Position numbers and translations under genes: made by a program. A stretch of DNA of 64,000 bases, taken from Smithella sp. (lineage in GTDB: Bacteria; Desulfobacterota; Syntrophia; Syntrophales; Smithellaceae). Every line of letters begins with the position of its first letter. Position 1 is the first letter of the stretch. Below are positions 53,549 through 64,000 of this stretch, piece after piece. The DNA is taken from positions 3,879-67,878 of the forward strand of contig JBDKUX010000093.1 in the NCBI GenBank assembly GCA_039679455.1, in the 5' to 3' direction. The notes under the pieces were generated by a model. It was given only the letters and a program-made list of their open reading frames with translations. It was not told the origin of the DNA and did not search any database.

Positions 53549-54922
53549 TTATTTGGATTCTTTGCGCAGATTATATTTAATCATCTTCAACTGCAATCCT
53601 TTGCGGCTCAGGCCCATTTGCTTGGCGGCCTTTGTTACATTGCCGCCTGATTCTTCCAGGCACTTGATGATCATTTGCTTCTCTACGTTTTCCACATGGT
53701 CACGCATGAAATCTTTGAAGGGTTTTTTTTCATCGTCTGTTAGCGCAGGCGGCAATTCTTCCAGACCGGCCTTGAATTCATCGGGCAGCTCATTGACGGT
53801 AATCAGATTGTCTTTGGCCAGGAGCATCATTCTTTCAATCAGATTTTCCAGTTCACGAATATTGCCCGGCCAGTCGTAGCGTAAAAGCTTATCTTTTACT
53901 TCACTGTCAATCGCGACGGAAAGCTCCAGCTTTCTATTAAATTTATCAATGAAATAATCAACCAGCGGTAAAATATCTTCTTTTCGTTCCCTCAGCGGCG
54001 GCACCACAATGGGAAAGACGTTGAGCCGGTAATACAGGTCTTCGCGGAAATTTCCGGACTGGACATCCTGCAGTAAATTTTTATTCGTAGCCGCAATGAT
54101 GCGCACGTCGACTTTAATTGTCCGCAGTCCGCCGACGCGTTCAAACTCCTGCTCCTGGATGACGCGCAGCAGTTTAACCTGCATGTCCCGGGGAATTTCT
54201 CCAACTTCATCCAGAAACAGCGTCCCCTTATGGGCAAGCTCAATTTTCCCCGGTTTGGTGATGGTTGCTCCGGTGAAAGCGCCTTTTTCATGGCCGAAAA
54301 GTTCGCTTTCCATCAGTGTCTCGGAAATGGCAGCGCAATTGATTTTGATGAGCGGATTGTTTTTCCGGGGAGAATTTTGATGGATAGCATCGGCCACCAG
54401 TTCCTTGCCGGTGCCCGTTTCCCCGGTGATGAGAACGGTGGTTGTTGTCGGCGCTACTCTTTTGATGGCGTCGAATATCTCCAGCGAGCGTTTGCTCGTG
54501 CCGATAATGCCGGTTCGTTCTATTTCTTCCGGCGGCACGAACAATTCGTTCTCGTTTAGAGTACGGGTTTTGATCGCTTTAGAAATGACGTTTTTCAGGT
54601 CATCGAGCTCAAAAGGTTTGGTTATGTAATCGAGGGCGCCTTTTTTGAGGGCTTCCACGGCGGTGGCGACAGTTCCATGCGCCGTAATCATGATTACAGG
54701 TATTTCCGGATATTGTTCGGTAATGCAATGCAGCAGTTCCATCCCGTCAATATGGGGCATTTTTAAATCGGTAACAACTACATCCATCCTGCTCGATTTT
54801 AAAATCTGCAGGGCTTCCCTGCCGTCGGCTGCCGATGTGACGGCATATCCTTCTTTTTTCAGCATGGCGGCCAGAACCAGCCGCATGTTTATTTCGTCGT
54901 CAACTATCAGAACTTTATTCAT
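53549..54922 (-). CDS. NtrC-family sigma54-dependent response regulator
   Basis: Receiver (DLKMP), GETGTGKE, ESELFGHEKGAFTGA, WPGNIRELEN, Fis HTH. Confidence 0.95.
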   Translation of the reverse strand: MNKVLIVDDEINMRLVLAAMLKKEGYAVTSAADGREALQILKSSRMDVVVTDLKMPHIDGMELLHCITEQYPEIPVIMITAHGTVATAVEALKKGALDYITKPFELDDLKNVISKAIKTRTLNENELFVPPEEIERTGIIGTSKRSLEIFDAIKRVAPTTTTVLITGETGTGKELVADAIHQNSPRKNNPLIKINCAAISETLMESELFGHEKGAFTGATITKPGKIELAHKGTLFLDEVGEIPRDMQVKLLRVIQEQEFERVGGLRTIKVDVRIIAATNKNLLQDVQSGNFREDLYYRLNVFPIVVPPLRERKEDILPLVDYFIDKFNRKLELSVAIDSEVKDKLLRYDWPGNIRELENLIERMMLLAKDNLITVNELPDEFKAGLEELPPALTDDEKKPFKDFMRDHVENVEKQMIIKCLEESGGNVTKAAKQMGLSRKGLQLKMIKYNLRKESK

Positions 54923-54977: not shown

Positions 54978-56501
54978 TCAGCCTGCGGCGTTAAGCCGGA
55001 GAAAAAATATGGTTTCTTTTCCCGGAATCGATTTTACACTGACCAGGCCCCCATGCTCTTTGATTATTTTCCGGCAGATCGCCAGGCCGAGACCAGCGCC
55101 TCTTTCCTTGGTTGTGTAAAAAGGTTTGAAGATATTTTTCAGAGATTCTTTGCTGATGCCGCAGCCGGTATCGCGGATCGTCAGACCGACGGCATTACCG
55201 GCGCTTGTTTTAATTTTAAATGTGCGGAAAGTTAAGGTGCCTCCCTCGGGCATTGCTTCGATGGCGTTGAGGGCAATGTTTAAGATCACCTGCATCAATT
55301 GCTGTTCATCTACTTCCACATCCGGCAAAGTATCATCCAGTTCCGTGACAATGGATATTTTACTGGCCAACTCGTTGGCAGCGATTATGGAGTTGGCTTT
55401 GGAAATAAGCGTATTGATATTCTGCTTTTTCAGCTTGAGCGTATAGGGACGGGCATAATCGAGAAACTGGCTGATGACGGCATTCAGTCTGTTTACTTCC
55501 TCTATGATGACATCGAACAGTTTATGCTGTTCTTCCGTGACGGCTTCCGTTTTCAGATATTGAGCGGCACCCTTGATCGAACCCAGCGGGTTGCGGATTT
55601 CATGGGCAAAAACCGGCGCCATTTCCGCCAGCATCATTGATTTTTCCCTTTCCAGTTTATTGTCGAATTCATAGATCGATGTAAAAACGTTTTTGCTTTC
55701 CGGATAAAAGTAGCTGAATATTATTTTTAATATTATGCGGATCGGAGAAAGAGAAATTACGATTAAAAACGAAGCCATAAGGATACTGGTAAAAGACGGC
55801 AATTGACTGTCGCTGAAGAAGCCCGCCGTAAAGTAAAAGATGACCATGCTGCATATGGTGCTGACAAAAATAACCAGTGTACGTGCAAAGAAGTCATGCA
55901 GTTCATGCAGCTGCGGGTAAGCGATAATCAGCAGGGTGAAGTAAAGCAGGGCTGATATGATAATTCCTGATAAAGGCGGAAAATTAAAGCCGAAATATAT
56001 AAGCAAATCAATGCTGCTCAGAATTAATGCAATAGGACAGGCAAAAAGCAGATAGCGCAGCCGTTTTTTTTCGACACTGGGAAATAATTTATTAACGTAG
56101 CGGACAAGGGCGATGTAGCATAGTCCCAAAGTGGCAAAAGTGTAAGATAGTAACAAAGGATGGAAATGCGACCATCGGGAAACGGGGGTAAAAAGGAAAA
56201 GGGCTCCCAGCGAACTTGCTACAATGGAAAAGACAATAAATCCCCTGGTCAAAATAGATTTGTTGTGAGTCAGCTGGTGGAAAAACCAGAAAGCACAGGG
56301 GGCGGTTGTCAGTATACCCAGATATTGAACTTTCCTCCAGAAAGGAGACAGAAAAACATCACTGGAAAAAGCGCCGATCTGGGAAACAAAAACAGCAAAG
56401 CAAAGGCAGATAAAAGATGCTTGCAACTTGTCTTTCCTGCCGGTTATAATGAGAGAAACGGCAATGATAAAACTTGTGGCGGCAAGAGTAAATGTATCCA
56501 T
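54978..56501 (-). CDS. multi-TM sensor histidine kinase
   Basis: ~8 TM segments, AHEIRNPL, NAIEAM, DTGCG, FYTTKERGAGLGL; TTG 56522 is an alternative start. Confidence 0.92.
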   Translation of the reverse strand: MDTFTLAATSFIIAVSLIITGRKDKLQASFICLCFAVFVSQIGAFSSDVFLSPFWRKVQYLGILTTAPCAFWFFHQLTHNKSILTRGFIVFSIVASSLGALFLFTPVSRWSHFHPLLLSYTFATLGLCYIALVRYVNKLFPSVEKKRLRYLLFACPIALILSSIDLLIYFGFNFPPLSGIIISALLYFTLLIIAYPQLHELHDFFARTLVIFVSTICSMVIFYFTAGFFSDSQLPSFTSILMASFLIVISLSPIRIILKIIFSYFYPESKNVFTSIYEFDNKLEREKSMMLAEMAPVFAHEIRNPLGSIKGAAQYLKTEAVTEEQHKLFDVIIEEVNRLNAVISQFLDYARPYTLKLKKQNINTLISKANSIIAANELASKISIVTELDDTLPDVEVDEQQLMQVILNIALNAIEAMPEGGTLTFRTFKIKTSAGNAVGLTIRDTGCGISKESLKNIFKPFYTTKERGAGLGLAICRKIIKEHGGLVSVKSIPGKETIFFLRLNAAG

Positions 56502-56568
56502 AATTTTGTTAATATAGTCCAAAACGTTAAAAAAGCTAATTAAAATTAATATTGGGATTGATTACATC

Positions 56569-56898
56569 ATGATGCAATACCTGTTAAAAGTAAAAAATGG
56601 AATGGCAAATATTATTAACATCACATTATTACTTGTTATTTGCCTGGCTATTCCCTCTGCGGCCTTTGCAGAGGAGAGGATTGTCCAATTAAATTTGTCC
56701 GGTTGTGCTGATTGTAATGCAACTGTCCGGATCGAAAAAATTTTGAAGAAAACCAGGGGTGTCAAGAAACATATAAATAAAGGGCACGGCTTGTTGGTCA
56801 TCACCTTCGATGATGAAATTACTACCCTTAATATTATTGTTAATGAACTCAAAAGAGGAAAGTTGTTTGTTGAAGGCGAAGCAATTTTTTTGAAATGA
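56569..56898 (+). CDS. exported heavy-metal-associated (HMA-like) protein
   Basis: Signal peptide (ATG 56602 likely start), GCADC motif, IEKILKKTRGV. Confidence 0.65.
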   Translation: MMQYLLKVKNGMANIINITLLLVICLAIPSAAFAEERIVQLNLSGCADCNATVRIEKILKKTRGVKKHINKGHGLLVITFDDEITTLNIIVNELKRGKLFVEGEAIFLK

Positions 56899-56985
56899 AG
56901 GCGATAAAAATATCAGGAATTTGTTCATCAGTCTGTTGCTGATGATTCCCTATGGCTGAAAATAATTTCCCGTGTGTGAAGTACT

Positions 56986-57122
56986 CTACGCAGCTGCAAA
57001 TTTAACTACGCAGCTATTTTCCCCGGAAAGCTTTTTTGTTCTACCCTGTCATGATATATATTCAATAACTTCTATCATTTACTGCTTTATAAGATAATTG
57101 TGTCCATGGCATAATAACTGCA
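56986..57122 (+). promoter_or_regulatory. sigma54 promoter with tandem UAS-like repeats and IHF-like site for the FAS cluster
   Basis: CTACGCAGCT at 56986 and 57006; TATTCAATAACTT at ~57059; TGGCAT-AATAA-CTGCA at 57107-57122 (GG-N10-GC). Confidence 0.65.
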
Positions 57123-57201
57123 TGGATTGCGGAAGTTATTTGTTATTATTCATAAAAAATTTTTTATTCGAAATTTAGTAGATATTGCAGGGAGGTTTTC
57201 A

Positions 57202-58152
57202 ATGAGCGAAAGTAAATGTGTAGCAGTTGTCTTTCCGGGACAGGGTTCGCAACGGCCGGGGATGGGGAAAGATTTTTATGATCAAATTCCCGTCAGCCGC
57301 GAAACATTTCAGGAGGCTTCTGACACATTAGGTTGGGATGTTGCCGCCATGTGTTTTGGCGAGGATGAAAGACTCAATCTTACCCAATATACTCAACCAT
57401 GTATTTTAACGACAGAAATAGCTATGTATCGTGCTTTGGTTGATCGTTATGGTTTTTCGGCCCAGTGCTTCGGAGGTCATTCCCTGGGTGAGTTCACCGC
57501 GCTCGAAGCCGCTGGAGTCATGCCGCTGGCCCAGTTGCTTCAGATAGTTCAAACCCGCGGCAAGTTAATGCAGCAGGCCGTTCCTGTAGGAGTCGGGGGC
57601 ATGGCGGCCGTCATATCGGAAGGTCTTGATGCTGAGCGCCTGAAGGAATCATTGAAAGATTTGCCCCTTGATCTTGCCAACATAAATTCGGCCAACCAGA
57701 TCGTCATCAGTGGTCAGGCCTCGGCAATACCGGATGCGGAAAAAATATTGTCGGAAGCTCTGGCAGGAGAAAAACCATTCAGATACGTTAAGTTGAATGT
57801 CAGCGCACCCTTCCATAGCCGCTTTATGAAACCGATCGCGGAGCCTTTTTTGCAGACTTTAAAGGAGGTTGGTACGGGATTGACTCCGGAGAATGCTTCC
57901 AAAGTGACTTCAAATTTTACCGGTGGATTCCATAAGGATTCGGCCGCCGAAATAATCAGCAATCTGGTTAACCAGCTCAGCAATGCCGTGAGGTGGCGCG
58001 ACAATATGCAGGCATTGGCCTCCCGGGCCACCGAAGTTTATGAAATCGGTCCAGGTCGACCCTTGCGGGAGTTTTTCAAAACAATTGATGTTGCCTGTCA
58101 GTCGATTACGGGATTGGCAGCGGCGGAAAAAGTTTTTGGCGGCGCCAAGTAA
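57202..58152 (+). CDS. fabD: malonyl-CoA:ACP transacylase
   Basis: GGAGG RBS; FPGQGSQ, GHSLGE, VSAPFHS, EIGPG. Confidence 0.93.
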   Translation: MSESKCVAVVFPGQGSQRPGMGKDFYDQIPVSRETFQEASDTLGWDVAAMCFGEDERLNLTQYTQPCILTTEIAMYRALVDRYGFSAQCFGGHSLGEFTALEAAGVMPLAQLLQIVQTRGKLMQQAVPVGVGGMAAVISEGLDAERLKESLKDLPLDLANINSANQIVISGQASAIPDAEKILSEALAGEKPFRYVKLNVSAPFHSRFMKPIAEPFLQTLKEVGTGLTPENASKVTSNFTGGFHKDSAAEIISNLVNQLSNAVRWRDNMQALASRATEVYEIGPGRPLREFFKTIDVACQSITGLAAAEKVFGGAK

Positions 58153-58256
58153 TATTTAGAAATAACGACTTGGCGAGTGAAGGGCCAAAACTACAATAAT
58201 ATAAGTGATTTTAAACAATTTAGAGAGTCAGCCACAAGAGGAAAGGTTTTTATAAA

Positions 58257-59456
58257 ATGGATTTTAACTTAAATGATAATCAGTTGATGTATGTGGAATC
58301 GGTACGAAAACTGGTAAAAAATGAGATCACACCTCACATTCTGGAGATGGAAAAGGCCCACAGGTTTCCCTGGCCGGTAATTTGTAAAGCGTGGGAAATG
58401 GGTATCATTAATCTGTGCATCCCGGAATCGGTGAAAGGTTTTGATATCGACGTTATTTCATCGGCGATGATTATCGCAGAACTTTCCTATGGTGATACGG
58501 GAATTTCCACTTCGGCGATGTGCAATGATCTGGCCAATGTCGTTATTTCCCGGCATGGTACGAAAGAACAGCAGGAAAGATTTCTGCGGCCTTTTGTCGA
58601 AAAGCCTCTTTTGGCTGCGTTTTGTCTGACGGAACCGGGGGCGGGTTCGGATAATTCCATGATGACGTCTTTCATTGCGAAGAGGGATGACGGCTCTTAT
58701 GTGTTAAACGGCTCCAAGTGTTTTATTACCAATGCTTCCTATGCTTCACAATACACCGTTCTGTGCAAGGTTGGAAAACCGACCGGCAACTTTATGGCCT
58801 GTGTTGTTATTCCGGTGGATGAGGTTACAGCGGAAGTGATACCGGATATCGCCAACAATACACGGGAAATAGATTTACCAACAGGCGGTAAGATTATTAT
58901 CGGCAAACCTGAAGACAAACTGGGGCAACGTCTGTCCAATACGGCCAGTGTGACGTTTGAGGATGTTGTCATCGGGACGGATCAGATTATCGGAGACAGA
59001 AGATTCGGCTTTAAATACATAGTTGATGTTCTGGATTATGCCCGGCCGATGGTGGCGGCGATCGGTTTGGGATTGGCCAAAAGAGCGCTGGCGGTCACTC
59101 TTGATTATACCCGGGAGCGCAAGCAGTTCGGTCAGCGGATTTGTGATCTGCCCGTAGCCAGAGAAACCATCACGGCTATGTGGAAAAAAGTGGAACTGGC
59201 GGAACTGGCTCTTTTAAAAGCAGCCTGTAAGATCCAGGAGAAGGCTGCTGATGCCGGAATTTATGCATCATTGGCGAAGAATACCGCAGCGGAGGCGGCT
59301 ATTTTCTGCTCGGCGGAAGGGTTGCATCTGCATGGCGGCTACGGTTTTACGACAGAATACGAAATATCCAAGCTGGCCAGAGATGCCCATATTGTTGATA
59401 TTTACGAGGGCGTCAGAGAAGTGCAGAATATGATTATTGGCCGGGAGATTGTATAA
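58257..59456 (+). CDS. acyl-CoA/acyl-ACP dehydrogenase family flavoprotein
   Basis: FCLTEPGAGSD, NGSKCFITN, KLGQR, RKQFG, HGGYGF, IYEG. Confidence 0.9.
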   Translation: MDFNLNDNQLMYVESVRKLVKNEITPHILEMEKAHRFPWPVICKAWEMGIINLCIPESVKGFDIDVISSAMIIAELSYGDTGISTSAMCNDLANVVISRHGTKEQQERFLRPFVEKPLLAAFCLTEPGAGSDNSMMTSFIAKRDDGSYVLNGSKCFITNASYASQYTVLCKVGKPTGNFMACVVIPVDEVTAEVIPDIANNTREIDLPTGGKIIIGKPEDKLGQRLSNTASVTFEDVVIGTDQIIGDRRFGFKYIVDVLDYARPMVAAIGLGLAKRALAVTLDYTRERKQFGQRICDLPVARETITAMWKKVELAELALLKAACKIQEKAADAGIYASLAKNTAAEAAIFCSAEGLHLHGGYGFTTEYEISKLARDAHIVDIYEGVREVQNMIIGREIV

Positions 59457-59458
59457 GG

Positions 59459-60451
59459 ATGCTTTATATTCACTCCATGGGACATTTTCATCCGGAAAAT
59501 ATTATCTCTAATAAATTTTTAGAAGATTTGGATATAGGGACTACCAGTGAATGGATTATGGAAAGGGTGGGGATTGAGAACCGCCGTACCGTTCTGCCTT
59601 TGGATTATATCCGACAAACAAAGAATGCCAATAAATTGGAATCTTTTGCCGTCAGGCAATATACCAATGCTCAAATGGGGGCCAGTGCCGCCCGCATGGC
59701 GATACAGCGCGCCGGCATAAAGCTTGAAGATATCGGCCTTCTTGTTTCCGGTACTTCCACCCCTGATAATCTTGCTCCGGCGGAAGCCTCGGCGATTGCT
59801 GCAGAATTGGGTATTGAAGTGCCCTGTTTCGATTTAAATTCCGCCTGCTCTACTTTTGGGATGCAGATGAATTTTCTTTTTCGGATGCAACCGGAAGCAA
59901 TGCCACCCTATGTGTTAGTTGTTAATCCGGAAACGATGACAAAGTCGATCGATTACACTGATCGTAATAATGCTGTGCTTTTCGGTGATGGAGCCTCCGC
60001 TACGATAATTTCTTCAACTATTCCGGGGCGCACCGTTATTTCGAATTGCGGCTTCGATTCCCGGCCGTCCGATTGGAGAAAAGTCGGTATTGACTGGGAT
60101 TGGAATTTTCACCAGGACGGCAGCGCCGTTCAGGGCTTCGCCATTCGGACGACGACGGAATATCTTAAACATCTTAAGAATGTTGCCGGCTCCGAAGCCG
60201 GACGGTTTATTTTTATCGGTCATCAGGCTAATTTAATGATGCTGAAAACAGTATGTGAGCGCGTGAAAATTGCCGCGGAAAACCATTGGTATAACGTTGA
60301 TCAATTTGGCAATAAGGCCAGTTGCGGCGCCCCCACGGTTTTAAGTATGCGGTGGGATGATCTGAAACCGGGAGATAATCTTGCCGTCGTCATCGTTGGT
60401 GCGGGGCTTACCTGGGCATACATGCTGTTGCAAGTGAAGGAGGATAAATGA
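59459..60451 (+). CDS. FabH-like ketoacyl-ACP synthase III
   Basis: NSACS, LFGDGA, GHQAN, FGN catalytic triad. Confidence 0.85.
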   Translation: MLYIHSMGHFHPENIISNKFLEDLDIGTTSEWIMERVGIENRRTVLPLDYIRQTKNANKLESFAVRQYTNAQMGASAARMAIQRAGIKLEDIGLLVSGTSTPDNLAPAEASAIAAELGIEVPCFDLNSACSTFGMQMNFLFRMQPEAMPPYVLVVNPETMTKSIDYTDRNNAVLFGDGASATIISSTIPGRTVISNCGFDSRPSDWRKVGIDWDWNFHQDGSAVQGFAIRTTTEYLKHLKNVAGSEAGRFIFIGHQANLMMLKTVCERVKIAAENHWYNVDQFGNKASCGAPTVLSMRWDDLKPGDNLAVVIVGAGLTWAYMLLQVKEDK

Positions 60452-61176
60452 TGGAAAAACCGGTTGCACTTGTTACGGGAGGTGCCATAGGTATTGGTGC
60501 TGCGTGTTGCCGTGCCTTATCGGCCGAAGGTTTTCGTGTCGGCATCCATTATCGCAAGAGTGGTGAGCAGGCGCAAAAAGTTCTTGCTGAAATAAAAGAT
60601 GGTTTTCTAATTCAAGCTGATCTCGCCAATATAGAAGACGTAGAGGCCATGGTTGTCAACTTAAAAGAACATACGAAGCGTGTTGATGTTCTGGTTAACA
60701 ATGCCGGTCAATCGATTAACGCTGATATATTTTCCATGAAGATCGAGCAGTTTGACGAACAAAGGGCGCTGACGCGTGGCGTCTGGTATATGACCAAAAG
60801 AATCCTGCGGCAATTCATGCTGCGCAGTCCGGCCGGCCGCATTATAAATATTTCCAGTGTTGTCGGTCATTTGGGTAACGCCGGGCAAATTCCGTACACA
60901 ATGGAAAAAGCGGCCCTGGATGCCTTTACTAAATCTCTGGCCCAGGAACTGCGCGGGCGCAACATCCTGGTGAATTCCGTTGCCCCCGGTTTTATTGAGA
61001 CGGAGATGACCCAGGAATTGCCGGAGGAGATAAAGAGTAAAATTCTGGCGGGGATTATCTTGAACCGCATCGGCCTTCCGGAGGAAGTTGCGGAAGTAGT
61101 CGCTTTCCTGGCGAAAAAGGGAAGCTACATAACTGGCAGTGTGATCCATGTTAACGGGGGGCTTTATGGTGGCTGA
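60448..61176 (+). CDS. fabG: FabG-like 3-oxoacyl-ACP reductase
   Basis: TGGAIGIG, NNAG, ISSVVG, YTMEK, VAPGFIETEM. Confidence 0.85.
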   Translation: MMEKPVALVTGGAIGIGAACCRALSAEGFRVGIHYRKSGEQAQKVLAEIKDGFLIQADLANIEDVEAMVVNLKEHTKRVDVLVNNAGQSINADIFSMKIEQFDEQRALTRGVWYMTKRILRQFMLRSPAGRIINISSVVGHLGNAGQIPYTMEKAALDAFTKSLAQELRGRNILVNSVAPGFIETEMTQELPEEIKSKILAGIILNRIGLPEEVAEVVAFLAKKGSYITGSVIHVNGGLYGG

Positions 61177-61636
61177 TGCCGACATAGTCCGGGAGGTTTT
61201 AGAGCTTGTGCCGCAGCAGGAGCCTTTTCGCTTTATTGACGAAATCATCGCTCTTGATGAAGACGAGATAGTCGGGACTTACCGTTTCCGTGAAAATGAA
61301 TTTTTCTACCATGGTCATTTCCCCGGCAGGCCTATTACGCCGGGAGTAATTCTGGTGGAAACGATGGCGCAGATAGGCGTGGTTGCTTTCGGCATGTATC
61401 TTCTGGCTTGTCAAAAAAATGTCAGACCGAGCCAGATGAAAAGTCCCTTAAGTCTCTTTTCTTTTATGGACAATGTGGAATTTAAGGGAATTGTAGTACC
61501 CGGAGAAAGGGTGATTGTAAAAGGCAAAAAAATTTATTTTCGTAAAGGGGCTATGAAGGTGGACATAGTTATGGAGAGAGAAAACGGTGAAGTTATCTGT
61601 TTGGGAAAATTAGCCGGAATGGGAGTAGAAAAATGA
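61166..61636 (+). CDS. fabZ: FabZ-like 3-hydroxyacyl-ACP dehydratase
   Basis: PFRFIDEI, GHFPGRPITPGVILVETMAQ. Confidence 0.85.
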   Translation: MVADADIVREVLELVPQQEPFRFIDEIIALDEDEIVGTYRFRENEFFYHGHFPGRPITPGVILVETMAQIGVVAFGMYLLACQKNVRPSQMKSPLSLFSFMDNVEFKGIVVPGERVIVKGKKIYFRKGAMKVDIVMERENGEVICLGKLAGMGVEK

Positions 61637-62913
61637 GAACGAGAGTGGTGGTAACAGGAATGGGTGTCGTTGCCCCCAATGCGCATGGTTTGAATAACTT
61701 TGAACAGGCACTGCGGGAAGGCCGCTCCGGCATACGTTTTATTCCCCTGTTGGAGCAATTGAAATTCAGCTGCCAGATTGGCGGAGTGCCGGAAAATTTT
61801 GATGAGATTCGTGAAAAATATTTTGATCATGACAGACTGCAATCCATGAATGAAAATATCGGTTACGCTTCAGTTTCAGCGGTTGATGCCTGGGTTGATG
61901 CCGGTTTTAAAGTTCCAGAAAGCGACAATGATACGGTGGATTGGGATACAGGTGTCATATCCGGGTCAGGAATAGGAGGAATGGATACAATTGCCAACAC
62001 GCTTGTGCCGATGGTCAATGAAGGCAAAGTGCGGCGTATGGGCAGCAGGATTGTTGAACAGGTCATGAACAGCGCAACCAGCGGGAGTATCGGTGGTTTG
62101 ATCGGCGCCGGCAACCAGGTTACCTCGAACTCTTCAGCCTGCAGCACCGGCAATGAAGCGATCATCGAAGGACTTTGGCGAATAAGAATGGGATTGGCCA
62201 AACGTATGGTGGTCGGCGGTTCGGAAGCCGCTTCTCCTTATATCTGGGGCGGATTTGACGCGATGAAGGTCATCTGCCGTAAATTCAATGATAACCCGGC
62301 GGCTGGTTCCCGGCCGATGAGTGCCTCCGCCTGCGGTTTTGTTCCGGGTTCGGGCGGAGCAATGCTTGTTTTAGAGGATCTGGAAACAGCGCTCTTGCGG
62401 GGCGCCAGAATTTATGCGGAAGTAATCGGCGGTTGCGTAAATAGCGGTGGGCAGCGAATGGGTGGTTCCATGACTGCTCCCAATCCCGAAGGAGTGAGAC
62501 GATGTATCCGGACTGCGGTTGCCGATGCCGGTATTGATGCTGCTCAAATTGATGCGATCAACGGCCATCTGACGGCGACATTTGCCGATCCTTACGAGGT
62601 TAAAAATTGGGCTGCAGCATTAGAGCGCACGCCGGATAATTTCCCGTTTATCAATGCCACGAAGTCGATGGTCGGACATTGTCTGGGGGCAGCCGGGTCA
62701 ATCGAATGTGTGGCCACAATACTGCAACTTAATAAAGGATTTTTACATCCGTCAATTAACAGTGAAGATGTCCATCCTGAAATTGAGCAATTTGCCGCAA
62801 AGATTCCGCAAAAATGCATGGAGTATCCGCAGCTGCGGATTTTTGCCAAAGCCGGTTTTGGTTTCGGCGATGTCAACAGTTGTCTAATATTTAAAAAATG
62901 GGAAGAAAAATAA
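61633..62913 (+). CDS. fabF: FabF-like beta-ketoacyl-ACP synthase
   Basis: VVVTGMG, SSACSTG, NGHLTAT, KSMVGHCLG, GFGFG. Confidence 0.88.
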   Translation: MRTRVVVTGMGVVAPNAHGLNNFEQALREGRSGIRFIPLLEQLKFSCQIGGVPENFDEIREKYFDHDRLQSMNENIGYASVSAVDAWVDAGFKVPESDNDTVDWDTGVISGSGIGGMDTIANTLVPMVNEGKVRRMGSRIVEQVMNSATSGSIGGLIGAGNQVTSNSSACSTGNEAIIEGLWRIRMGLAKRMVVGGSEAASPYIWGGFDAMKVICRKFNDNPAAGSRPMSASACGFVPGSGGAMLVLEDLETALLRGARIYAEVIGGCVNSGGQRMGGSMTAPNPEGVRRCIRTAVADAGIDAAQIDAINGHLTATFADPYEVKNWAAALERTPDNFPFINATKSMVGHCLGAAGSIECVATILQLNKGFLHPSINSEDVHPEIEQFAAKIPQKCMEYPQLRIFAKAGFGFGDVNSCLIFKKWEEK

Positions 62914-62936
62914 TTATATCAAAAGGAGAATAGTAA

Positions 62937-63185
62937 ATGGACGAGAAAAAAATATTTGAGGAAATGGTTAATATTTTAAAGGCGTATACAAAGGATGTTA
63001 CGCTTTTGGAAAAAGCGGATATGAAAACGCACATTTTAAATGATTTAAAAGTCAATTCCGCCCGCCTGGTTGATGTTATCATCAAGTGTGAAGATGTTTA
63101 CGGAATCAGCATCGATGATGACGAAGCGGATAAAATTCGGACAATCGGCGACGCCGTTACGGTAATCAAACAAAAACTTGGGTAA
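62937..63185 (+). CDS. acyl carrier protein with atypical NSA motif
   Basis: AGGAG RBS; DLKVNSARLVDVII, I.DDEA..I.TIGDAV. Confidence 0.88.
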   Translation: MDEKKIFEEMVNILKAYTKDVTLLEKADMKTHILNDLKVNSARLVDVIIKCEDVYGISIDDDEADKIRTIGDAVTVIKQKLG

Positions 63186-63189
63186 AATA

Positions 63190-64000
63190 ATGGATAGAAA
63201 ATCCGAATTGTTTCTTCAGGTGCAATACTATGTGGGGCGAATTGCCGTTTTCTTTATTGCGCCCCTGTATTTTTTTATTGCCCGGCTGTTGTTTTACCGG
63301 GTTCATAATTTGAAAGAAATACGCCGTCAATGTGCCGTGGAGTTGTCCCGGCACAAAGGCCCCTGGATTGTTTGCGCCAATCATCTCACGATGATTGATT
63401 CCTTTCTTTTGACTTATGCGATCTTCAGCTTTGGCGCATATCTGAAGGATTACAAGAAAATACCGTGGAACCTGCCGGAAAGAAGCAATTTCCAGAAAAA
63501 TATTGTTCTGGCCGTGTTATGTTATCTTTCCAAATGCATCCCGGTCGACCGCGGCGGTCCCCGGGAAAAGACAAAAAAAATGCTGGAGAAATGCATGTAT
63601 CTGATGCACAGCGGTCAAAATATCATGATTTTTCCGGAAGGCGGGCGTTCCCGCACCGGGCGGATTGATAAAGAAGGCTTCTCGTACGGTGTTGGACGTT
63701 TTGTTCAGGATGTGGAAGACTGTAAGATTATGTGCGTTTATATGCGGGGCGACAAACAGGCTACTTATGGTTTCATACCGGCGTGGGGAGAAAAATTTTA
63801 TGCCCGGATGGAGGTGTTTACACCTGTACGCGCCGCCGCCGGCGGACTGCGCGCCCAGCGTGAATATGCGGCACAGATAATTGAAAAGTTGGCGCAAATG
63901 GAGGATAAGTATTTTGTCTTGCATCGGGAACGATGTTGTGGATTGGGAACATCCGGCAAACTTGAACAGAAGCAGGGATTTCCGGTATCAGAAGAAAATC
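63190..64000 (+). CDS. PlsC-like lysophospholipid acyltransferase (runs off the window end)
   Basis: Missing from the ORF track. Read from ATG 63190: ...WIVCANHLTMIDS...IPVDR...IFPEGGRS. Confidence 0.85.
   Translation, partial: MDRKSELFLQVQYYVGRIAVFFIAPLYFFIARLLFYRVHNLKEIRRQCAVELSRHKGPWIVCANHLTMIDSFLLTYAIFSFGAYLKDYKKIPWNLPERSNFQKNIVLAVLCYLSKCIPVDRGGPREKTKKMLEKCMYLMHSGQNIMIFPEGGRSRTGRIDKEGFSYGVGRFVQDVEDCKIMCVYMRGDKQATYGFIPAWGEKFYARMEVFTPVRAAAGGLRAQREYAAQIIEKLAQMEDKYFVLHRERCCGLGTSGKLEQKQGFPVSEEN

Follow-up and report, generated by a model that had tools for sequence, protein, structure and literature searches.

Which protein completes the elongation cycle in a type II fatty-acid synthase (FAS-II) operon that encodes an acyl-CoA dehydrogenase (ACAD) and no recognisable enoyl-ACP reductase (ENR; ACP, acyl carrier protein)? 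The question is raised by an eight-gene operon at 57202-64000 of a 64,000-nt stretch of DNA (the window) from Smithella sp., order Syntrophales, phylum Desulfobacterota. The window corresponds to C93:3879-67878 (contig JBDKUX010000093.1), the contig extends 1.5 kb past it, and the genome has 3.40 Mb at 99.87% completeness. The operon comprises, tightly packed and in one direction, the genes for FabD, the ACAD-family protein, a FabH-like condensing enzyme (KSIII), a FabG-like ketoacyl reductase (KR), a FabZ-like dehydratase (DH), an elongating ketosynthase (KS'), a private ACP (ACP') and a PlsC-type acyltransferase. The original prediction for this locus, made from the window alone, had given the same gene order and tight packing, and both were confirmed, including the 2 bp between the ACAD stop and the KSIII start, as calculated from open reading frame (ORF) coordinates.

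That prediction further held that no ENR was present within the window, and proposed either that the ACAD was a candidate ENR linked to an electron-transfer flavoprotein (ETF), or that it served a desaturation or starter-unit step. Inspection of ORFs and searches with Pfam and NCBIfam models found no ENR in the operon, downstream of it or elsewhere on the contig; just downstream lie the end of the acyltransferase gene, a 4'-phosphopantetheinyl transferase (PPTase) gene and then dnaX at the contig end. The absence holds for the window and the contig, but not for the genome. A canonical FabI is encoded at C45:23037-23813 (L052:1453-2229), beside ackA (NF005717, 435.6 bits, cut-off 337), and a FabK-like protein of the nitronate monooxygenase (NMO) type on C104, beside the 3-hydroxybutyryl-CoA dehydrogenase gene hbd (TIGR03151, 255 bits, cut-off 453). 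The FabV N-terminal domain PF12242 had no match in this genome, and since the search rose above cut-off in no control genome either, the absence of FabV is not shown by it.

We compared the locus with a sample of related organisms, comprising 121 genomes from the order and 291 from elsewhere in the phylum. Position in the operon, distribution and gaps in the ENR repertoire favour the first of the two proposals: the ACAD appears to have displaced an ENR of the short-chain dehydrogenase/reductase (SDR) type in place, and would reduce enoyl thioesters, probably with ETF as the donor. We hold this reading to be a little better than evenly balanced.

Gene exchange in the slot after fabD

Orthologues of KS' (62-67% identity) were found in six genomes outside the order (G350, G262, G164, G234, G408 and G160) and serve as markers of homologous operons inside and outside it. 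Four of the six sister loci were examined in detail (G350, G160, G262 and G164). Within the order, the full operon of G074, G041 and G024 reads FabD-ACAD-KSIII-FabA-KR-DH-KS-ACP-acyltransferase-PPTase, the FabA between KSIII and KR matching NF003509 at 200.6 bits. The operon of G350 reads FabD-SDR-KSIII-FabA-KR-DH-KS-ACP-acyltransferase-PPTase and is colinear with that of G074 except that an SDR of 313 aa occupies the ACAD slot. In G160, G262 and G164 the same SDR (311-349 aa) lies just 5' of the homologous genes in reduced operons. The exchange of one gene for another within an otherwise colinear operon is the first argument for an in-place replacement.

The second argument comes from the slot SDRs, which look like ENRs. 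All four examined have a Tyr-x6-Lys motif that aligns with that of this genome's FabI; Tyr-x3-Lys is found in the operon KRs, in a canonical FabG and in all three SDRs of G074. According to the accessible part of a review of ENRs, Tyr-x6-Lys marks ENRs of the SDR type, whereas SDRs commonly have Tyr-x3-Lys (PMC9260719). With FabL (cut-off 328) the slot SDRs score 106-121 bits; it is the best named NCBIfam family for three of the four and the second-best for the fourth. They also match PF13561 (132-146 bits) and, weakly, PF12241, the FabV/TER catalytic domain. Among their nearest solved proteins, all of them weak matches at ~65 bits, are 2,4-dienoyl-CoA reductase and the FabL of B. subtilis.

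The reduced sister operons differ in other respects as well. In G164 (L116:10590-11324) a C-terminal KR remnant is joined to DH in one 244-aa ORF, and in G160 (L117:11094-13085) the PPTase domain forms the N-terminus of a 663-aa ORF; the operon queries gave no acyltransferase match in the G160 operon.

The distribution of the two slot genes is complementary, which also argues for replacement. Full-length orthologues of the slot SDR are present in all six KS' carriers outside the order, each with the KS' gene adjacent by coordinates, and in none of the 121 genomes of the order, the six matches outside serving as a positive control for the query. Within the order, 108 of the 121 genomes have the ACAD orthologue, at 67-86% identity and about 600-790 bits, with two copies cut at contig ends; at E<=1e-90 none of the 291 other genomes of the phylum has it. 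Of the 13 genomes without it, G051 and G086 have the orthologous fabD at a contig end and are likely to lack the ACAD through an assembly gap; eight have only a different FabD (34-41% identity), and the remaining three (G087, G101 and G105) are 72-80% complete.

The ACAD clade is isolated and strongly constrained, and this too speaks for the replacement. No paralogue exceeds 37% identity or 218 bits, and the orthologue alignment has a mean column identity of 82%. Among 1.84 billion 50%-identity representatives the clade consists of one full-length cluster (72% identity) and fragments; no full-length relative lies between 39% and 72% identity in this set, the next being at 39% or less. Near-identical ACADs (97-98%) come from metagenome-assembled genomes labelled Smithellaceae, Smithella and Syntrophaceae.

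Synteny of the ACAD, on which the original prediction depended, is conserved: in all 29 loci checked the gene adjoins fabD, KSIII or KR, with KSIII adjacent in 25. In G069 and G098, KR-DH-KS follows directly after the ACAD, without KSIII. In one genus (g3; G054 and G084) a two-gene fabD-ACAD unit is retained at 79% identity, the other operon genes are not nearby, and no KS' orthologue was found genome-wide. The constant partner of the ACAD would accordingly seem to be FabD and not the private module described below, and the retention of fabD-ACAD alone is a further point in favour of an ENR function. An 851-aa open frame in G045 was considered as a FabD-ACAD fusion and rejected, the two genes being in different frames.

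The operon also holds core functions. Its FabD is the sole FabD of the genome (tblastn; PF00698). The genome has three FabA-domain matches, namely the operon DH, a FabA on C64 (NF003509, 195 bits, cut-off 124) and an ApeI-like protein on C64, which leaves the operon DH as the only FabZ-type dehydratase. On C97, yceD is followed by canonical acpP-fabF (FabF, 624 bits), without fabD or fabG there; a second FabH is encoded on C112, and three PPTases are present, that of the operon included, with an AcpS-sized one on C150. Where ACAD carriers have yceD-acpP-fabF, ACAD-less members of the order have fabD in the canonical locus as well, as yceD-fabD-fabG-acpP-fabF-rpiB in G044 and fabD-acpP-fabF-rpiB in G100. 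Because the sole FabD and the sole FabZ-type DH sit in it, the operon is more than accessory. FabD, KSIII, KR, DH, an elongating KS and ACP are encoded together, as in a type II FAS locus, though below equivalog cut-offs, and a private carrier module, made up of KS', ACP', the acyltransferase and the PPTase, seems to be attached to these core functions. The operon is best read as the reorganised core type II fatty-acid synthase locus of the order fused with such a module, a setting in keeping with an ENR function for the ACAD.

A further argument is the gaps in the ENR repertoire. FabI-like and FabK-like genes were counted at E<=1e-30 in the 121 genomes, five genomes without a FabK-like listing being derived by subtraction. 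FabI-like genes were found in 10 genomes (four over cut-off) and FabK-like NMO genes in 96, none over the cut-off of 453 (best 345 bits). Neither type was found in 22 genomes, 20 of which carry the ACAD, three closed ones included; the two genomes with no FabI-like gene, FabK-like gene or ACAD are 77% and 80% complete. An ENR of these types is thus not universal among carriers (lacking in 20 of 108), and two families, f21 (7 genomes) and f24 (5 genomes), are wholly without both. In the closed genomes G041, G059 and G074, which have canonical FabF, NMO matches are partial only, at no more than 32 bits, and in G041 and G074 the FabI profile matched nothing better than the KR of the operon itself (54-60 bits). 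The FabV catalytic domain PF12241 had no match in five genomes, these three included; no control genome matched, so that absence is likewise not shown.

FabI of 433-435 bits occurs in four of the 121 genomes, spread over three families, and this patchy distribution suggests lateral gain or repeated loss. NMO/FabK-like genes are multiplied in some genomes of the order, with up to 17 matches in G002.

The protein, its electron donor and competing roles

The ACAD-family flavoprotein (399 aa; 58257-59456, + strand), a candidate enoyl-thioester reductase, has the three ACAD Pfam domains, all above cut-off (PF02771, 84.7 bits; PF02770, 66.3 bits; PF00441, 119 bits). It was compared with the NCBIfam models for AcrC, cyclohexanecarboxyl-CoA dehydrogenase, glutaryl-CoA dehydrogenase, FadE, RedW/PigA and MbtN and reached none of these named equivalogs, the best being AcrC (248 bits against 640), with RedW at 164.5 against 650 and MbtN at 42 against 700. 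In the Pfam and NCBIfam searches it matched no known ENR class (FabI, FabL, FabL2, FabI2, FabMG, FabK or FabV). The closest solved structure is that of medium-chain acyl-CoA dehydrogenase (MCAD; 3mdd and 1udy) at 237 bits; other solved relatives are butyryl-CoA dehydrogenase (Bcd) at 194-203 bits (5ol2, 194), CarC (6fah) at 169 and the prolyl-ACP dehydrogenase 4irn at 122.

The catalytic glutamate of the IYEG motif, noted in the original prediction, is retained: Glu384 aligns with the catalytic E376 of MCAD and is invariant in 32 of 32 orthologues. The Thr of an F-I-T-N stretch aligns with an MCAD threonine that we take to be Thr168. Of the acidic insertion of about 20 aa that had been described, the insertion itself (DEVTAEVIPDIANNTREIDLPTGG) is real. 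It forms a loop in the middle beta-domain, at residues about 187-207, that is ~15-20 residues longer than that of MCAD, and its length is kept in all 38 orthologues compared, but sequence and acidity vary, and we rejected it as a functional motif. Co-prediction of an ACAD dimer with ACP' (score 0.05, mark 0.32) gave no evidence either way.

In the mechanism that we propose, a non-orthologous swap from the SDR-type ENR to the ACAD would have taken place at the base of the order and been kept under strong constraint. The ACAD would run reductively: its FAD would convert trans-2-enoyl thioesters, most likely enoyl-ACP, into acyl thioesters, and Glu384 would transfer the proton. Reduced ETF or a different low-potential carrier, and not NAD(P)H directly, would supply the electrons. 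That reductive, ETF-coupled ACADs exist among the relatives (Bcd 5ol2, CarC 6fah), and that etfAB is present in the genome, argues for this direction; the reductase activity, the ACP substrate and the electron donor are what we infer here from comparison.

A number of observations weigh against an ENR function. ACADs as a rule oxidise CoA esters, an activity against which the setting of this one would nevertheless speak. The sole etfAB pair lies at C27:5097-6351, beside an acetate-CoA ligase gene and unlinked to the operon. Its type, bifurcating or not, appears ambiguous: EtfB matches the Paracoccus (1efp, 180 bits) and human (1efv, 174 bits) ETFs better than those of the Bcd and CarC complexes (151 bits), and for EtfA the top matches are CarE (272 bits) and 5ol2_A (247 bits). 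Given FabI and the FabK-like protein in the same genome, the ACAD would here be one of several ENRs. In the order, 85 of the 108 carriers have a FabK-like NMO and 10 a FabI-like gene, and the ACAD is therefore not needed as ENR in most of them; NMO proteins can probably serve as ENR in the order, because 11 ACAD-less genomes hold one. Each of five genomes checked that lack a known ENR encodes four dehydrogenases of the medium-chain dehydrogenase/reductase (MDR) type, none adjoining fab genes, and an unrecognised ENR could be among these. No slot SDR comes near the cut-off of any ENR family, and since these queries found no other SDR in the operon at three of the four sister loci, the slot SDRs there could be ketoreductases in spite of their motif. 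Lastly, the FabV searches lacked a positive control, and the genomes sampled are related and not independent observations.

Three other roles were weighed. The one that survives best, although we consider it unlikely, is that the ACAD is a tailoring acyl-ACP' dehydrogenase, introducing a 2,3- or other desaturation into a special chain that the PlsC-type acyltransferase installs, with enoyl reduction supplied in trans by FabI, the FabK-like protein or others. FabX, MbtN, TcsD and FkbI are precedents for tailoring desaturation or dehydrogenation in their pathways. The private ACP', KS' and acyltransferase and a dedicated PPTase beside a separate AcpS-type gene would suit such a role, as would the 88 of 108 carriers with a FabI-like or FabK-like gene able to supply the ENR step; the other 20 have no such gene. 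ACP- and peptidyl carrier protein-dependent ACADs are known, the models for RedW, PigA and MbtN match weakly (42-164 bits, all far below cut-off), and the structure 4irn (122 bits) is one of the solved relatives. FabX is also a precedent for a flavoenzyme that runs the ENR step backwards, according to the accessible part of its description (PMC8626469). The tailoring role fits poorly with genus g3, which keeps fabD-ACAD without a nearby KS', ACP' or acyltransferase, with the ENR motif of the gene in the same slot of the sister operons, and with the FabA of the classical anaerobic unsaturated route, already present on C64 here and in the operon elsewhere. FabA and genus g3 thus weaken the desaturation and starter-unit options of the original prediction.

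Less probable again, in our view, is a role in primer supply, in which the ACAD would act on CoA esters outside the elongation cycle, for example converting crotonyl-CoA into a saturated acyl-CoA for loading by KSIII. Its best family and structure matches are all CoA-dependent (AcrC, 248 bits; MCAD, 237; Bcd, 194-203), and the close spacing to KSIII here and their adjacency in most loci would fit. Against it stand G069 and G098, in which the ACAD is followed by KR-DH-KS without KSIII, and g3, in which fabD alone lies beside it. Primer supply also leaves unexplained the exact exchange with a Tyr-x6-Lys SDR and the lack of a known ENR in 20 carriers, and does not easily account for 67-86% identity across the order against at most 37% to paralogues.

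Very improbable is the third possibility, that the ENR is the FabK-like NMO where present (96 of 121 genomes, 11 of the 13 ACAD-less ones included) and elsewhere an MDR-type protein, four of which occur in each of the five genomes mentioned, or an unrecognised reductase, with a different role for the ACAD and a coincidental slot swap, since no NMO in 121 genomes reaches the FabK cut-off (best 345 against 453 bits), the NMO gene of this genome adjoins hbd and not fab genes, none of these MDR genes adjoins fab genes, and the slot exchange and complementary distribution (6/6 against 0/121) are left unexplained.

We thus prefer the in-place replacement of the ENR. No essential reaction is better known for being carried out by non-homologous enzymes (FabI, FabL, FabK and FabV) than the ENR step, which is also a major antibacterial target. 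If the replacement is true, an ENR of the ACAD type, independent of NAD(P)H, would add another class with a different mechanism, lipid synthesis in strictly anaerobic syntrophs would be tied to their pool of ETF and ferredoxin, and the closed genomes of the order without any known ENR would be explained. A bolder version, which we regard as improbable, would make the ACAD the first of a new flavin/ETF-dependent ENR class working with an electron-bifurcating ETF, so that NADH-driven enoyl reduction would generate reduced ferredoxin as well. Making fatty acids would in that case itself save energy for bacteria living at the thermodynamic limit, which would give a reason for the order-wide swap away from an NAD(P)H-dependent SDR. 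In a full-text literature search, which did not extend to subscription-only papers and supplements, we found no description of an ACAD-type ENR or of fatty-acid synthesis in these syntrophs. The accessible part of a 2022 ENR review lists the classes FabI, FabL, FabL2, FabI2, FabMG, FabK and FabV and contains neither "acyl-CoA dehydrogenase" nor "electron transfer" (PMC9260719).

Operon layout, regulation and further clusters

All operon genes are on the + strand. Pfam assigns all eight, and all eight miss the NCBIfam equivalog cut-offs, FabD narrowly. The gene for FabD, malonyl-CoA:ACP transacylase (57202-58152; PF00698; TIGR00128, 256 bits against 260.9), has an ATG preceded by the ribosome-binding site GGGAGG, and a longer ORF with a TTG start begins at 57127. 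After the ACAD gene follow KSIII (59459-60451; PF08541 and PF08545; NF006829, 190.8 bits against 249) and KR (60448-61176; TIGR01830, 233 bits against 297.75), a FabG-like SDR with Tyr-x3-Lys in alignments, whose gene overlaps that of KSIII by 4 bp. The FabZ-like 3-hydroxyacyl dehydratase (61148-61636) matches PF07977 at 61 bits, NF000582 at 84.7 bits against 113 and a further NCBIfam equivalog at 81 bits against 155. The FabF/FabB-like KS' (61633-62913; TIGR03150, 299 bits against 493.75) overlaps the DH gene by 4 bp. ACP' (82 aa; 62937-63185) matches PF00550 at 21.2 bits and its NCBIfam model at 36.5 bits against 70; the motif DLKVNSARLVD is invariant or nearly so across 17 orthologues, and its serine is invariant. 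The acyltransferase (278 aa; PF01553) has an H-x4-D motif in its translation and occupies 63178-64000, ending 14 bases past the window (L001:7057-7893). The PPTase (231 aa; PF01648, 33.9 bits) begins at 63881 and lies mostly beyond the window (63881-64000 on; L001:7760-8455).

Contigs from four RNA libraries of three studies match pieces of fabD, ACAD, KSIII, KR, DH, KS', ACP' and the acyltransferase gene, and one of 2696 nt, from a relative of ~91% identity, spans fabD-ACAD-KSIII. Such contigs cannot show transcription, strand or level, DNA being possibly present in the libraries, and they are at most a weak hint of transcription; stretches that they leave uncovered carry no meaning.

Divergent from the operon, on the - strand, lie the genes for a sigma-54-dependent response regulator (457 aa; 53549-54922) and its partner, a membrane histidine kinase (514 aa; 54978-56522) with a hydrophobic N-terminal half in translation. 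Both were identified here as ORFs; the G074 homologue of the regulator has Response_reg, Sigma54_activat and HTH_8 domains and the counterpart of the kinase HisKA and HATPase_c. By ORF size and position, a kinase and sigma-54 activator pair also lies 5' of fabD in G074, G041 and G024. About 80 nt 5' of the fabD ATG, at 57107-57121 (+ strand), is a sigma-54-type promoter-like element, TGGCATAATAACTGC (GG-N10-GC), and a GG-N10-GC element lies likewise 5' of fabD in the same three genomes. The loose pattern is not enriched across the window (50 found against 62 expected); because it is no commoner than chance, the site counts only by position and conservation. On these grounds the operon would be transcribed from a sigma-54 promoter controlled by the sensor kinase and activator encoded next to it. 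A 109-aa ORF with a C-x-x-C motif lies at 56569-56898 (+ strand), between the genes for the histidine kinase and FabD, and an RNA-library contig (run X3) covers 56565-56994.

Other gene clusters with lipid-type functions are present in this genome. One on C64 (L012:1201-10861) encodes a B12-binding radical-SAM protein, a polysaccharide deacetylase and an ApeI/FabA-like dehydratase, together with two radical-SAM-like proteins, two ketosynthases, a PS-DH-like protein and PlsY. From its radical-SAM and ketosynthase genes an anammox-type ladderane cluster was considered, an idea dropped given the Smithellaceae affiliation. A third cluster, on C6 (L010:2579-10805), encodes an AMP-ligase, an SDR, a LolA-like protein, an amine-oxidase/desaturase-like flavoprotein, a ketosynthase and an acyltransferase, and a KS-KS-ACAD run on C6 reaches the contig end (L010:19275 to L011:3097), placing another ACAD beside ketosynthases. 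In G074:C1 the gene for a further ACAD, of 389 aa, comes after that for a FabG-grade SDR (NF004200, 310 bits, cut-off 273), beside nifU and nifS (L098:3455-5728), and a third ketosynthase (L094:13515-19352) lies with a nitroreductase-family protein and class-III and class-I/II aminotransferases, which may be a biotin-type (pimeloyl) cluster.

Comparison with known systems

FabI and FabL, the Tyr-x6-Lys SDR-type ENRs, would share with the operon ACAD the proposed reaction, the last step of a FAS-II elongation round, and the slot between fabD and KSIII as seen in the sister operons. They are Rossmann-fold SDRs that use NAD(P)H, whereas the protein described here has the ACAD fold with FAD, so that the donor must differ. 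Bcd with EtfAB, CarC and AcrC belong to the ACAD family, have the catalytic Glu in the same position and are precedents for enoyl-thioester reduction by ETF electrons. These ACADs are encoded beside their own etf genes. They differ from the operon ACAD in being CoA-ester enzymes; the latter stands in a FAS-II context, with etfAB on another contig, and misses their equivalog cut-offs by far. MCAD is the closest solved structure (237 bits) and has the aligned catalytic Glu, but is an oxidative enzyme of beta-oxidation, while the operon ACAD has the longer middle-domain loop and a biosynthetic context.

FabX of H. pylori, an enzyme of the NMO/FabK fold that contains FMN and a [4Fe-4S] cluster, works in the oxidative direction for unsaturated fatty acids. 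The operon enzyme differs from it in having the ACAD fold and in a setting where FabA is already present for the unsaturated branch. What the two would share, as far as the accessible part of the FabX study describes it, is that a flavoenzyme other than a classical ENR acts at the enoyl/acyl-ACP redox step of FAS-II (PMC8626469). The fabI-fabN-fabO group of E. faecalis offers a parallel in gene arrangement, since there, in the accessible part of the source, an ENR is encoded together with one additional dehydratase of FabZ type and one additional ketosynthase of FabF type (PMC9671860), much as the ACAD is here grouped with DH and KS'. The ENR of that group is an ordinary FabI, and the operon described here adds FabD, KSIII, KR, ACP, an acyltransferase and a PPTase.

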